A DNA stretch of 64,000 bases, taken from NCBI RefSeq assembly GCF_003018255.1, contig NZ_CP027440.1, one strand, 5' to 3'. The notes beneath the pieces were generated by a model. The model was not told where the DNA came from. It worked only from the letters and a program-made list of their open reading frames with translations, and did no database searches. The DNA comes from Escherichia coli (GTDB taxonomy: Bacteria > Pseudomonadota > Gammaproteobacteria > Enterobacterales > Enterobacteriaceae). Position numbers and translations under genes: made by a program. Every line of letters starts with the position of its first letter. Position 1 is the first letter of the stretch. Of the stretch, positions 25,437 to 62,886 are shown piece by piece.

Positions 25437-27539
25437 TTACTCAAATCGCCACGCAATATTCATGCCGACACCATAATTTCGCCCGGGCGCAGGTTCGTAA
25501 TATCGCCCGTTTGACTCATTGACAATGACAGAGCCAACGTATTCTTTATCGAATAAATTATCGACACGACCAAATAAATCCACAGTTAAATTGTGGTAAT
25601 TGTATTTATACCCGGTGAATAAGCCGACGAGAGTATAAGACGGCGCTTTGGCCGTATTTTCATCATCTGCCATAATATCGCCCATATAACGCGCTTCCGT
25701 ACCTGCATACCAGCCATCTTCCGGTACATAACCTATCGACGCAAAGCCCATATTACGGGCGATCCCTGGCATCCGGTTACCGTTACAATCCTGTTCATTG
25801 CAAACATTGCTGCGATAGGTCGCATCAAGCCAGGTCCAGGACGCTTTTACGCGAAAATCTCCCGCGAAACGTTGATCCCATGCCAGTTCAGCGCCTTGAC
25901 GACGGGTCTTTCCGGCATTTTTGTAAGTCGTACGCCCACCGCTACTGCTATCGACAACAATTTCATCATCGGTGTCGGTCTGGAACAATGCGAGACTAAG
26001 CAGCCCATCACCAATACGCGTTTTACTGCCGATCTCAATTGTATCGTTGGTGGAGGGTTTTAAACCAAAGTTCATACCGCTTTGCCCATCAGCGCGATAA
26101 GACAGCTCATTAATCGTCGGCGTTTCAAAACCGCGCCCGGCTGCCAGATAGACATTCCAGGCATCGGTCATTGCATATTTTAACGATCCGGCTGGTAGCC
26201 ATTTGTGATAACTGGCATCACCGCTGTCGTCGCCGTTACCCGGAGTAACGTAATGATCATTGGAATCAAACCACACAGAGCTGTAGCGCACGCCAGCATC
26301 CAGCGAAAGTTTGTCGGTCAGTTGCCACTGGGTTTGTAAATAGGGATCGACGTTCCACATCAAATTGCGTTCGTCGCGGCGCAACTCACCTTTTTGCCCG
26401 TATTCCGGCACGCCGCGATTCAGGCGGAAGTTATTGTAACCCTTGCGGTTTTCACTCATGTTTTCGTAGTTCAGGCCGGTTGTGAACGTGACTGGAACGC
26501 CCAATTCACCACGGTGTGTCCAGCGGCTGTCTATCCCCTGGTAATGGCGTTGCAGGGTAATCACGCCGCCCGCATGTGACGGGTTAAGTTGCGGGGACAT
26601 GGGGATTGACTGGTACTGGGTCGTTTCTCGCTCTCCGGCATACATCATTACACTCATATCATCTTGCGCGCTCAGGCTACGTTCATAGCGCAACCCAGCC
26701 TGAGTTTGCTTGATGGTTTTTCGCGTGTCGTACTGTTCTGCACGGGGCGCTTGTTGTGGATTCGCCTTCCATTCTGCTTCGGTTAGCCCACCTGGGTCAT
26801 CTGCTTTGATATCCACACTATTGAAAATCAGGCTTAATTTGCTGGCGTCATCAATGCGAACGCCCAGTTTGGCATTGGCTAAATTTTTCTGTGCGCCACT
26901 ATGATCACGATAGCCGTGGGTCGTAAAGCGCGTGGTTGAGACGGTGTAATCGACATCGCCTGGCTGTGTGCCGTCTCCCGTTGCGCCCGTTGCTTTCAGC
27001 CCATAGCGCCAGCTGCCAAAACTGCCGTAGTAACTACTGGCTTCAATGGTTGGTGGCTGTTGTCCGGTCTGGGTGATGACATTCATTACACCGCCAGACG
27101 CGTTGCCATACAGAGCAGAGAAGGGGCCACGCAGCACTTCCACATTTTGCACACTGCTTAAATCGATATTGGATGTCTGCCCTTGTCCGTCGGGCATGGT
27201 AGCGGGAATACCGTCAACATACAGGCGAATACCGCGAATTCCGTAAGTGGAGCGGGAGCCAAATCCGCGAATCGACAGCTGTAAATCTTGCGCATAGTTC
27301 TGCCGGTTTTGTACCTGCAAACCAGGCACGCCAGTCAGTGATTCAGACAAGTTAATGCGCGGTGTTGCCAGGCGCATCTCCTCGCCATCCACCACGCTCA
27401 CGGCTGCTGGGGTATCCAGTTCTGAAATCACCTGCGGCGCGGCACTGACAATCATGGTCTGTTCATCAGCGGCAAAAACGGTGGGGGAAAGGACAAGCAG
27501 CGCGGGAAAAACGGTCTGTCGGACGGAAAAAATCTTCAT
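25437..27539 (-). CDS. yncD: TonB-dependent outer membrane receptor
   Basis: 700-aa ORF; signal peptide, C-terminal terminal aromatic (…AWRFE); beta-barrel receptor. Confidence 0.9.
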   Translation of the reverse strand: MKIFSVRQTVFPALLVLSPTVFAADEQTMIVSAAPQVISELDTPAAVSVVDGEEMRLATPRINLSESLTGVPGLQVQNRQNYAQDLQLSIRGFGSRSTYGIRGIRLYVDGIPATMPDGQGQTSNIDLSSVQNVEVLRGPFSALYGNASGGVMNVITQTGQQPPTIEASSYYGSFGSWRYGLKATGATGDGTQPGDVDYTVSTTRFTTHGYRDHSGAQKNLANAKLGVRIDDASKLSLIFNSVDIKADDPGGLTEAEWKANPQQAPRAEQYDTRKTIKQTQAGLRYERSLSAQDDMSVMMYAGERETTQYQSIPMSPQLNPSHAGGVITLQRHYQGIDSRWTHRGELGVPVTFTTGLNYENMSENRKGYNNFRLNRGVPEYGQKGELRRDERNLMWNVDPYLQTQWQLTDKLSLDAGVRYSSVWFDSNDHYVTPGNGDDSGDASYHKWLPAGSLKYAMTDAWNVYLAAGRGFETPTINELSYRADGQSGMNFGLKPSTNDTIEIGSKTRIGDGLLSLALFQTDTDDEIVVDSSSGGRTTYKNAGKTRRQGAELAWDQRFAGDFRVKASWTWLDATYRSNVCNEQDCNGNRMPGIARNMGFASIGYVPEDGWYAGTEARYMGDIMADDENTAKAPSYTLVGLFTGYKYNYHNLTVDLFGRVDNLFDKEYVGSVIVNESNGRYYEPAPGRNYGVGMNIAWRFE

Positions 27540-27674
27540 GAAAAAAGCCAGGTTAAGAATGGGAAAACACCGTCATGGTAATAAAATTGTAAATTTATGG
27601 AAAACGAAACGGCACGATATGTTAAGTAATTGAGAAAATTGTAGTCGTAACGGCAAGAAATGCTCCACATTTGA

Positions 27675-27695
27675 GAAAATAATGATTACCATTCC
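27675..27695. promoter_or_regulatory. Candidate Fur box (aaaataatgattaccattc) in the yncD/yncE divergent promoter region
   Basis: Match to GATAATGATAATCATTATC-type consensus read from sequence; about 90 bp upstream of yncE start. Confidence 0.4.
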
Positions 27696-27780
27696 CATTT
27701 ATAACAAGAGCGTAACGATGATTACGCTTAGCGAAGCATTGTGAAGCAGCAAAAATATCGGTTCATCAAAGGGAGTCGTC

Positions 27781-28842
27781 ATGCATTTACGTCATCTGTT
27801 TTCATCGCGCCTGCGTGGTTCATTACTGTTAGGTTCATTGCTTGTTGCTTCATCATTCAGTACGCAGGCCGCAGAAGAAATGCTGCGTAAAGCGGTAGGT
27901 AAAGGTGCCTACGAAATGGCTTATAGCCAGCAAGAAAACGCGCTGTGGCTCGCCACTTCGCAAAGCCGCAAACTGGATAAAGGCGGCGTGGTTTATCGTC
28001 TTGATCCGGTTACTCTGGAAGTGACGCAGGCGATCCATAACGATCTCAAGCCGTTTGGTGCTACCATCAATAACACGACTCAGACGTTGTGGTTTGGTAA
28101 CACTGTAAACAGCGCGGTCACGGCGATAGATGCCAAAACGGGCGAAGTGAAAGGCCGTCTGGTGCTGGATGATCGTAAGCGCACTGAAGAGGTGCGCCCG
28201 CTGCAACCGCGTGAGCTGGTGGCAGACGATGCCACGAACACCGTTTACATCAGTGGTATTGGTAAAGAGAGCGTGATTTGGGTCGTTGATGGCGAGAATA
28301 TCAAACTGAAAACCGCCATCCAGAACACCGGTAAAATGAGTACCGGTTTAGCGCTGGATAGCAAAGGCAAACGTCTTTACACCACTAACGCTGACGGCGA
28401 ATTGATTACCATCGACACCGCCGACAATAAAATCCTCAGCCGTAAAAAGCTGCTGGATGACGGCAAAGAGCACTTCTTTATCAACATCAGCCTTGATACC
28501 GCAAGGCAGCGTGCATTTATCACCGACTCTAAAGCGGCAGAAGTGTTAGTGGTCGATACCCGTAATGGCAATATTCTGGCGAAGGTTGCGGCACCGGAAT
28601 CACTGGCTGTGCTGTTTAACCCCGCGCGTAATGAAGCCTACGTGACGCATCGTCAGGCAGGTAAAGTCAGTGTGATTGACGCGAAAAGCTATAAAGTGGT
28701 GAAAACGTTCGATACGCCGACTCATCCGAACAGCCTGGCACTGTCTGCCGATGGCAAAACGCTGTATGTCAGTGTGAAACAAAAATCCACTAAACAGCAG
28801 GAAGCTACCCAGCCGGACGATGTGATTCGTATTGCGCTGTAA
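27781..28842 (+). CDS. yncE: Periplasmic beta-propeller protein
   Basis: 353-aa ORF with signal peptide; recognised as YncE. Confidence 0.85.
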   Translation: MHLRHLFSSRLRGSLLLGSLLVASSFSTQAAEEMLRKAVGKGAYEMAYSQQENALWLATSQSRKLDKGGVVYRLDPVTLEVTQAIHNDLKPFGATINNTTQTLWFGNTVNSAVTAIDAKTGEVKGRLVLDDRKRTEEVRPLQPRELVADDATNTVYISGIGKESVIWVVDGENIKLKTAIQNTGKMSTGLALDSKGKRLYTTNADGELITIDTADNKILSRKKLLDDGKEHFFINISLDTARQRAFITDSKAAEVLVVDTRNGNILAKVAAPESLAVLFNPARNEAYVTHRQAGKVSVIDAKSYKVVKTFDTPTHPNSLALSADGKTLYVSVKQKSTKQQEATQPDDVIRIAL

Positions 28843-30454: not shown

Positions 30455-30720
30455 TGCTCTCCCTGATTGCTTTAATGAAAAAGTCATATAAGTTGCCATG
30501 AACAATGTTTATTCATCCTGGCGATGATAGTTATCACCATTATTCTTTATGGGTATAAAACTATCGGCGCAGCATCCTACCCGTTATCGATAAACGATGC
30601 AAAACATCCCCTTACAATTCTGAAGGGGATTCATACAACTGACGAAAAAATGACAAATACTTTTGCTGGTTAACCTGTGTGCTGTCCTAGACTTAATCTT
30701 TAAAAGATTGTGAGGGGCAT

Positions 30721-31338
30721 ATGATTAAGGTGCATGGCGTACCCGGATGGGGCACTACAATCAGTGAGATGATGCTAACACTGGCTGATATTCCTTATCA
30801 GTTCGTTGATGTCAGTGGTTTTGACCACGAGGGAACTTCACGCGAGTTATTGAAAACCCTGAACCCGTTGTGTCAGATTCCGACACTGGCGCTGGAAAAT
30901 GACGAGATTATGACGGAGACAGCGGCGATTGCATTGATGGTTCTCGATCGTCGCCCGGACCTTGCGCCACCGGTTGGGCGCGCCGAACGTCAGCAGTTTC
31001 AACGGCTATTGGTCTGGCTGGTTGCTAATGTCTATCCAACATTCACTTTCGCCGATTACCCTGAGCGTTGGGCTCCTGACGCACCCGAACAGTTAAAGAA
31101 TAATGTTATTGAATATCGTAAATCGCTTTATATCTGGCTGAATTCACAATTGACCGCTGAACCTTATGCGTTTGGTGAGCAACTAACGCTGGTGGACTGT
31201 TATCTTTGCACCATGCGCACATGGGGGCCGGGGCATGAATGGTTTCACGATAATGCGCAGAATATCAGCTCGATCGCTGAAGCTGTATGTCAGTTACCGA
31301 AATTACAAGAAGTATTAAAAAGGAATGAAATTATTTGA
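30721..31338 (+). CDS. yncG: Glutathione S-transferase-like protein
   Basis: 205-aa ORF; GST N- and C-domain-like. Confidence 0.8.
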   Translation: MIKVHGVPGWGTTISEMMLTLADIPYQFVDVSGFDHEGTSRELLKTLNPLCQIPTLALENDEIMTETAAIALMVLDRRPDLAPPVGRAERQQFQRLLVWLVANVYPTFTFADYPERWAPDAPEQLKNNVIEYRKSLYIWLNSQLTAEPYAFGEQLTLVDCYLCTMRTWGPGHEWFHDNAQNISSIAEAVCQLPKLQEVLKRNEII

Positions 31339-31413
31339 ATGGGATACCAGAAGATTATGTTATTTATTATTCAGTAACTTTATCCACAATGATGGACGTA
31401 ATTAATTAGATTC

Positions 31414-60100: not shown

Positions 60101-60233
60101 AGTTCCTCCTTTTCGGATGATGTTCTGCATAGCAGGTGAGGCAAATGAGATTTATTCGCCACTACCCAGTATGGATGAGATCTGAAAAAGGGAGAGGAAA
60201 ATTGCCCGGCAGCTTTCACCACCGGGCGCAGGC

Positions 60234-62542: not shown

Positions 62543-62886
62543 AGTGATTCTCCGTGTCTGTGTATTTATGGTGTCTGCTACGGATCGCAGATTTATAAAG
62601 CACATTCAGCATGGCAAATATTTGCCGCTTCGTTGTTAAGATTAGTCCTGGTTGATGATTTTTATATTTTAACTCCATGATATTGATAGGTATTATTATT
62701 GTGATGAGTTGATTGATATTGATGCAATATCTCTTGAGTTATATATTTCCGGTTATCTATTGTGGAAATTTAATTTAAGTGCAGGAATTATATTTTCGCC
62801 GGATTTTATTCGGATTATCCTGCTTATCCTCGTGCTGTTTCTCACGTAGTCTATAATTTCCTTTTTAAGCCCACAGGAGAGCAACA

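Follow-up and report, generated by a model that had tools for sequence, protein, structure and literature searches.

A conserved Fur operator at the promoter of yncE in Escherichia coli

Introduction

The closest described system to the site analysed here is the Fur box of yncE in E. coli K-12. It is the same locus with the same sequence, and the box itself shows no difference of any kind. A Fur site at yncE was first reported in 2003 (McHugh et al., cited via PMC8896160). ChIP-seq found Fur bound upstream of yncE (PMC4676285), and in strain CFT073 yncE is among the genes of the direct Fur regulon, with Fur sites stated to be conserved with MG1655 (PMC7157518). A fur mutant overproduces YncE protein, as seen by western blot (PMC5120174), and both Fur iModulons include yncE. 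The Fur operator of yncE is therefore already known, since 2003, and has been repeatedly confirmed by ChIP.

YncE is a periplasmic beta-propeller protein and is not a known iron transporter. The protein is of practical interest as a vaccine and diagnostic antigen. Its divergent neighbour, YncD, has been renamed PqqU, a TonB-dependent importer of pyrroloquinoline quinone (PQQ) and not of iron (10.1101/2022.06.07.495086; PMC7193533). Two groups describe YncD as not Fur- or iron-regulated (10.1101/2022.06.07.495086; PMC7193533).

A preliminary description, made from the DNA letters, had pointed to a Fur-box-like sequence at 27675-27695 between these two genes. Here we follow up that site within the window, by which we mean the whole 64-kb stretch of DNA that was analysed. 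All coordinates without further label are positions in the window. The two genes that flank the site are as follows.

25437-27539, minus strand: pqqU (yncD) coding sequence, the divergent neighbour and not the primary target of the box (from the ORF list and annotation).
27781-28842, plus strand: yncE coding sequence, the regulated gene, encoding a 7-bladed beta-propeller periplasmic protein (from the ORF list and the RefSeq annotation of identical DNA).

Methods

All positions of the window were compared with the 19-bp Fur consensus, GATAATGATWATCATTATC. No position in the 64-kb window lies within three mismatches of this consensus and the yncE box has four, hence graded scoring was used. The calibration set consisted of 11 classic MG1655/K-12 Fur-controlled promoters: fepA-fes, fepD-entS, fepB-entC, fhuA, cirA, fiu, tonB, exbB, fecI, fecA, and ryhB. 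A weight matrix was trained on the 11 classic Fur sites, with yncE left out. Gene names (pqqU and yncE) were taken from the RefSeq annotation of identical E. coli DNA.

The data on Fur occupancy and on derepression are published, and the peaks were re-mapped here. In the copy of the MG1655 peak table that was used, the rows are shifted by one line. They were re-registered by means of the ydcM, adhP, and yddA positions, and the adhP position was verified. For conservation, one genome per species was scanned, giving 80 yncE loci from about 25 enterobacterial genera, 79 of them with usable upstream DNA.

For RyhB pairing, E. coli RyhB was used for all species, its core being taken as conserved across species. 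The informative test was the comparison restricted to the candidate leader block, set against shuffled RyhB cores.

Results

The best Fur match in the window lies between pqqU and yncE

The divergent intergenic region between pqqU and yncE spans 27540-27780 (241 bp) and is AT-rich, with 36.5% G+C. A 441-bp query across the site found matches in 5411 of 5426 complete E. coli genomes, annotated there as pqqU and yncE. Compared with MG1655, the intergenic region carries five substitutions, all of them pqqU-proximal, and is thus a non-K-12 allele. Between 27621 and the yncE ATG, the window and MG1655 agree at every base without indels, so that K-12 coordinates transfer exactly over this part. MG1655 and W3110 have identical intergenic DNA.

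The string aaaataatgattaccattc is present at 27676-27694, inside the interval that had been proposed as Fur-box-like. The best 19-bp register and its 5' arm are given below.

27678-27696, no strand assigned: Fur box, a 19-bp operator reading AATAATGATTACCATTCCC and spanning -23 to -5 of the yncE promoter.
27679-27686: 5' arm of the Fur box, TAATGATT.

This register shares 15 of its 19 letters with the consensus. No other position in the 64-kb window reaches 15/19, and six reach 14/19. Three of its four departures from the consensus fall in the 3' arm, which reads ATTCCC where the consensus has ATTATC. When the 241-bp intergenic region was shuffled 20,000 times by each method, 15 or more matches arose in 0.22% of the mononucleotide and 0.25% of the dinucleotide trials. 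The best matches at the 11 classic promoters range from 12 to 16 of 19 positions, and their matrix scores range from 11.4 to 20.8 bits. By the same matrix the yncE box scores 19.3 bits, ahead of eight of the 11 training sites, and the runner-up in the window scores 14.1 bits. The proposed likeness to a Fur box is thus borne out as the top match in the window. Judged by its letters, the site is a good natural Fur box, not a near-perfect one. Weaker overlapping Fur registers occur at +6 (27684) and -3 (27675), as they do at other Fur operators.

The surrounding DNA also carries a 10-bp direct repeat, TTGAGAAAAT, at 27630-27639 and 27671-27680, 41 bp apart, and one copy abuts the Fur box. The repeat is probably due to chance; neither copy is kept between genera.

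The runner-up, GCAAATGAGATTTATTCGC at 60141-60159, stands 41-59 bp before the start codon of adhP. Published ChIP-exo data for MG1655 list one other intergenic Fur peak in this part of the chromosome, at 1551898-1551925 (PMC10164565), and the runner-up falls on it, so that it serves as an internal positive control for the Fur scan. Three of the 14/19 matches (30526-30544, 31099-31117, and 31353-31371) are in AT-rich DNA upstream of ansP (start codon 30454, minus strand), adjoining strain-specific Rhs/type VI secretion genes. Expression of ansP is lower in the MG1655 fur mutant (log2 -1.39), and no ChIP peak is listed there (PMC10164565). The match at 62679-62697, GATATTGATAGGTATTATT (14/19, 13.7 bits), is in the bdm-osmC intergenic region, where no published Fur peak is listed.

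The box covers the spacer and -10 region of the yncE promoter

Start sites for both genes have been mapped in K-12 (PMC3415461, supplementary file 2, Kim et al., coordinates of U00096.2). The yncE start is at 1521251 (+), with 489 reads and an 80-nt leader. The yncD start is at 1521118 (-), with 11 reads and a 29-nt leader. The published -50 to +1 sequence of yncE, CGGCAAGAAATGCTCCACATTTGAGAAAATAATGATTACCATTCCCATTTA, is identical to the window. The following features describe the two promoters.

27701, plus strand: yncE transcription start site, mapped from PMC3415461.
27687-27692, plus strand: putative yncE -10 hexamer, TACCAT, inside the Fur box and ending 8 nt before the mapped start.
27664-27669, plus strand: putative yncE -35 hexamer, TCCACA, 17 bp upstream of the -10 hexamer and inside the conserved block CTCCAC.
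27568-27603, minus strand: pqqU core promoter, with its start at 27568, -10 TACCAT (reverse complement of 27575-27580), and -35 TTTCCA (reverse complement of 27598-27603).

The yncE hexamers were assigned from the start site together with conservation. They would form a sigma-70 promoter, yncEp, made up of TCCACA, a 17-bp spacer, TACCAT, and 8 nt to the start, with 8 of 12 matches to the promoter consensus. TACCAT is the only hexamer near the yncE start whose second letter is A and whose sixth is T, and other genera have TACTAT or TATTAT in its place. At 8/12 the promoter falls under the threshold of the promoter scanning tool (9/12), yet both hexamers are conserved. The sole call of that tool, at 27745-27718 on the minus strand, agrees with neither mapped start site. 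We also considered and rejected two other hexamers. TTGAGA (27671-27676) as the yncE -35 is not conserved, and if TATAAC (27700-27705) were the -10, the mapped start at 27701 would fall inside it.

With the yncE start at 27701, the Fur box spans -23 to -5. It therefore lies over the spacer and the -10 hexamer. A position of this kind points to an operator that occludes the promoter, and we consider 27678-27696 to be the operator through which Fur controls the sigma-70 promoter of yncE in this way, with a probability of roughly 93%.

Fur occupies the box in vivo and yncE responds to iron

A Fur ChIP-exo peak has been published both for MG1655 (1521238-1521250) and for W3110 (1524928-1524940) (PMC10164565 supplement, Gao et al.). 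Counted from the annotated yncE start of each genome, both peaks cover the bases 93 to 81 before the ATG. The peaks map onto the window as a single feature.

27688-27700, no strand assigned: published Fur ChIP-exo peak, on the 3' half of the box in both strains.

Changes in yncE expression have been reported as well. In fur mutants of eight strains yncE is up by log2 3.1 to 8.1, or 9- to 280-fold, with 3.10 in MG1655, 8.14 in W3110, and 3.6-5.5 in the six other strains (PMC10164565). Iron limitation raises the yncE transcript 16-fold, of which about 3-fold is credited to RyhB (PMC8896160). The proposal that yncE is iron-regulated is thus supported, with ChIP-exo peaks on the box itself. The preliminary description had named Fur ChIP, and expression under iron limitation or in a fur mutant, among the ways to check the site. 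The published data of both kinds show binding and regulation, and so contradict the two outcomes, no binding and no iron-dependent control, that were to count against it.

AT-rich DNA could also attract some other regulator, such as a nucleoid protein or another metalloregulator. Such a protein might be the main binder, with Fur a bystander, and the 36.5% G+C of the region is in keeping with this idea. Against it, yncE is strongly derepressed in fur mutants, consistently from strain to strain, and it belongs to the Fur iModulons. Our literature search found no other regulator of the yncE promoter. We regard a main binder other than Fur as barely credible, the least probable of the readings considered here.

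The box is conserved and travels with yncE

In most of the 80 loci the best Fur match lies at about -100 from yncE. Of the 79 loci with usable upstream DNA, 78 have the box core, TAATGATT[AG][CT][CT]ATT, at about 100 bp before yncE; in the remaining locus the upstream DNA is just 79 bp long. In 10 loci, mostly of Citrobacter, pqqU is not adjacent and the box is kept at the same distance from yncE. This retention in the absence of pqqU as a neighbour indicates that the box belongs to yncE. The loci without a divergent pqqU and with the core at about -100 are L010, L011, L013, L015, L018, L020, L021, L025, L047, and L079 (Citrobacter and Trabulsiella).

Within E. coli the promoter is also stable. 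A 61-bp promoter segment was found in 5410 of 5426 complete genomes and is identical in 3930 records. Three E. coli promoter variants that were sampled have changes only at 27675 and 27709, outside the box, and the W3110 box is likewise unchanged.

A column-wise profile across the genera shows two blocks at about 90% conservation or higher. One is CTCCAC(A/T)TT, in the -35 region. The other is ATAATGATTAC(C/T)ATTC.CAT, which takes in the box and the -10. These blocks are the most conserved parts of the intergenic region, and the 7-8 bp between the -35 block and the box vary freely. A further short conserved block, GTTAA at 27621-27625, lies between the two promoters and is part of neither core promoter.

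Because the -10 hexamer lies within the box, the needs of the promoter by themselves should conserve some of it. This raises the question of whether the likeness to a Fur box is incidental. The segment would then be conserved merely as the -10 and spacer of yncE, and iron control would be indirect, for example only through RyhB, which does increase yncE expression. The 5' arm speaks against this. It lies in the promoter spacer, and the arm, AATAATGATT, is conserved along its whole length while neighbouring spacer bases are free to vary, a pattern that promoter function alone would not predict. The matrix score of the box is above that of most classic Fur sites, and ChIP-exo puts Fur on the exact spot in two strains. 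RyhB gives only about 3-fold of the 16-fold induction. An incidental likeness is therefore very improbable in our judgement, and direct control of yncE by Fur at the box is the reading we retain.

The pqqU promoter lies outside the reach of simple occlusion

The site had also been described as lying between two plausibly iron-regulated genes. This stands for yncE and largely fails for yncD, which imports PQQ and not iron and changes by only log2 0.12 in the MG1655 fur mutant. The geometry of the region is in line with this outcome. The yncE and pqqU starts are 133 bp apart, and the centre of the box is about 119 bp upstream of the pqqU start. The box neither overlaps nor adjoins the pqqU core promoter, both hexamers of which fall within conserved blocks. 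No Fur-like site of note was found on the pqqU core promoter, where the best matrix score is 3.4 bits. One 10-bit Fur-like site at 27634 is not conserved.

Other published values are less simple. The yncD values in fur mutants are log2 0.12 in MG1655, 2.95 in W3110, and 2.0 in EC042, and the same study assigns the W3110 Fur peak to both yncD and yncE (PMC10164565). In the tables of that study, low yncD values (about 5) go only with full repression of yncE (about 18), and yncD is about 30 wherever yncE is partly or fully derepressed. These observations would suit a shared bidirectional operator through which Fur represses yncE and pqqU together, as at fepA-fes, fepD-entS, and fepB-entC, and which would make PQQ uptake iron-regulated. 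The distance between the promoters and the weak scores on the pqqU side argue the other way. So does the lack of change in MG1655, whose intergenic DNA is the same as in W3110. Regulation of YncD by Fur or iron is denied in two papers, and the box stays by yncE in the 10 loci without an adjacent pqqU. Taken together, these points make a shared operator rather improbable, though clearly less so than an incidental likeness or a different main binder.

An operator dedicated to yncE, our preferred reading, leaves one observation to be accounted for. Simple occlusion of the yncE promoter does not explain the derepression of pqqU in W3110 and EC042. The difference between strains could reflect a distance effect of full Fur occupancy, coupling of the divergent promoters, an indirect effect, or culture conditions. 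A conditional or indirect link between Fur and pqqU may thus exist. A distance effect on pqqU may have been missed in MG1655 because the wild-type cultures were already partly derepressed.

A second published Fur ChIP-exo peak of MG1655, at 1520944-1520980, maps to 27394-27430, within pqqU at its 5' end. This segment, ACGCTCACGGCTGCTGGGGTATCCAGTTCTGAAATCA, does not resemble a Fur box.

The yncE leader contains a conserved hairpin and a candidate RyhB pairing site

The yncE leader contains two conserved elements downstream of the box.

27709-27728, plus strand: conserved stem-loop, AGCGTAA-CGATGA-TTACGCT, at +9 to +28 of the yncE mRNA, with a 7-bp stem and a 6-nt loop.
27731-27750, plus strand: conserved leader block, GCGAAGCATTGTGAAGCAGC, a candidate RyhB pairing site complementary to the RyhB core (nt ~40-59).

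The hairpin is supported by covariation. Over 73 enterobacterial leaders, compensatory changes occur in all seven pairs (7/7), and 94.9% of cells are paired; sliding the partner by 1-3 columns lowers this to 34-53%. None of 500 shuffles reached the covariation score. RNAalifold yields the same helix, and the loop has the consensus C-N-A-N-G-A. An Rfam search of the region gave no family match, only chance-level hits with E of at least 2.2 and far under the gathering scores. Beyond this 5' hairpin we found no conserved helix in the leader, and no conserved structure that sequesters the ribosome-binding site.

We rejected three other readings of 27709-27728. The first is an upstream ORF that would begin with the ATG of the loop and encode MITLSEAL in E. 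coli; the ATG is absent in 13 of 75 leaders and the position of the stop varies. The second is a palindrome bound by protein as DNA. Here the stem bases change freely in compensating pairs and the loop bases are conserved, in keeping with an RNA helix. The third is a minus-strand terminator, for which the T-run is poor; the stem compensation and the conserved loop again fit an RNA helix.

RyhB raises both the translation and the mRNA level of yncE (PMC4666370), and activation is also reported in PMC8896160. Our literature search found no published RyhB pairing site or mechanism for yncE. For the duplex between the leader block and the single-stranded RyhB core, the predicted energy is -20.1 kcal/mol in E. 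coli, and across 75 leaders the median is -22. When the RyhB core was shuffled, the comparison gave a median of -9.1 and a best value of -14.4 kcal/mol. The nearly invariant GAAGC..TGT is inside the predicted duplex, and different genera keep the pairing with different sequences. This suggests that RyhB probably pairs with 27731-27750. Less restricted calculations gave no significance. Folding the full-length RyhB duplex gave P = 0.06 with unrealistic long-range pairings, and the 40-nt RyhB core against the whole leader gave P of 0.04-0.13. The CopraRNA rank of yncE as a RyhB target is 834th (PMC7154689). With the candidate site masked, neither the Shine-Dalgarno sequence nor the AUG was predicted to become more accessible.

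Discussion

The evidence assembled here suggests a simple mode of control for yncE. When iron is plentiful, Fe2+-Fur would bind the 19-bp box at 27678-27696. Bound Fur would cover the spacer and the -10 hexamer, RNA polymerase would be kept off, and yncE would be silent. When iron is scarce, Fur would leave and yncE would be transcribed from 27701 with its 80-nt leader. RyhB, itself repressed by Fur, raises yncE further at the post-transcriptional level, probably by pairing with the conserved leader block. Fur thus acts on yncE through two arms, direct repression of the promoter and repression of the activator RyhB. The pqqU promoter, with its start 133 bp away, is not occluded by the box.

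A more far-reaching proposal has two parts. Full Fur occupancy would lower pqqU about 6-fold at a distance, by spreading or coupling, and separately the leader hairpin and the RyhB-complementary block would form an undescribed post-transcriptional module of yncE. The two parts taken jointly are unlikely, though we find them less so than a shared operator. If true, the distance effect would tie PQQ scavenging to iron status.

As a discovery the site carries little weight. Its value lies in being a clean, well-calibrated positive example, in which a real operator was picked out from the letters of the DNA.

The yncE operator has clear relatives among known systems. At the classic operators fhuA, cirA, fiu, and ryhB, as at yncE, a 19-bp box with 12-16 of 19 matches lies over the core promoter, and loss of Fur derepresses the gene. 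The boxes of yncE orthologues share an AATAAT..ATTCTC flavour with those of ryhB and fhuA. In contrast to these operators, that of yncE serves a product that is not a known iron transporter. A second comparison is with fepA-fes, fepD-entS, and fepB-entC, where the box also lies between divergent genes, one of them encoding a TonB-dependent receptor. The yncE box differs in covering one promoter only, and the receptor gene beside it is not Fur-responsive in MG1655. Finally, cirA and shiA combine the same two layers as yncE: Fur represses transcription, and the Fur-repressed RyhB activates post-transcriptionally. For shiA a structure that sequesters the ribosome-binding site has been described, whereas the yncE leader shows no conserved counterpart.
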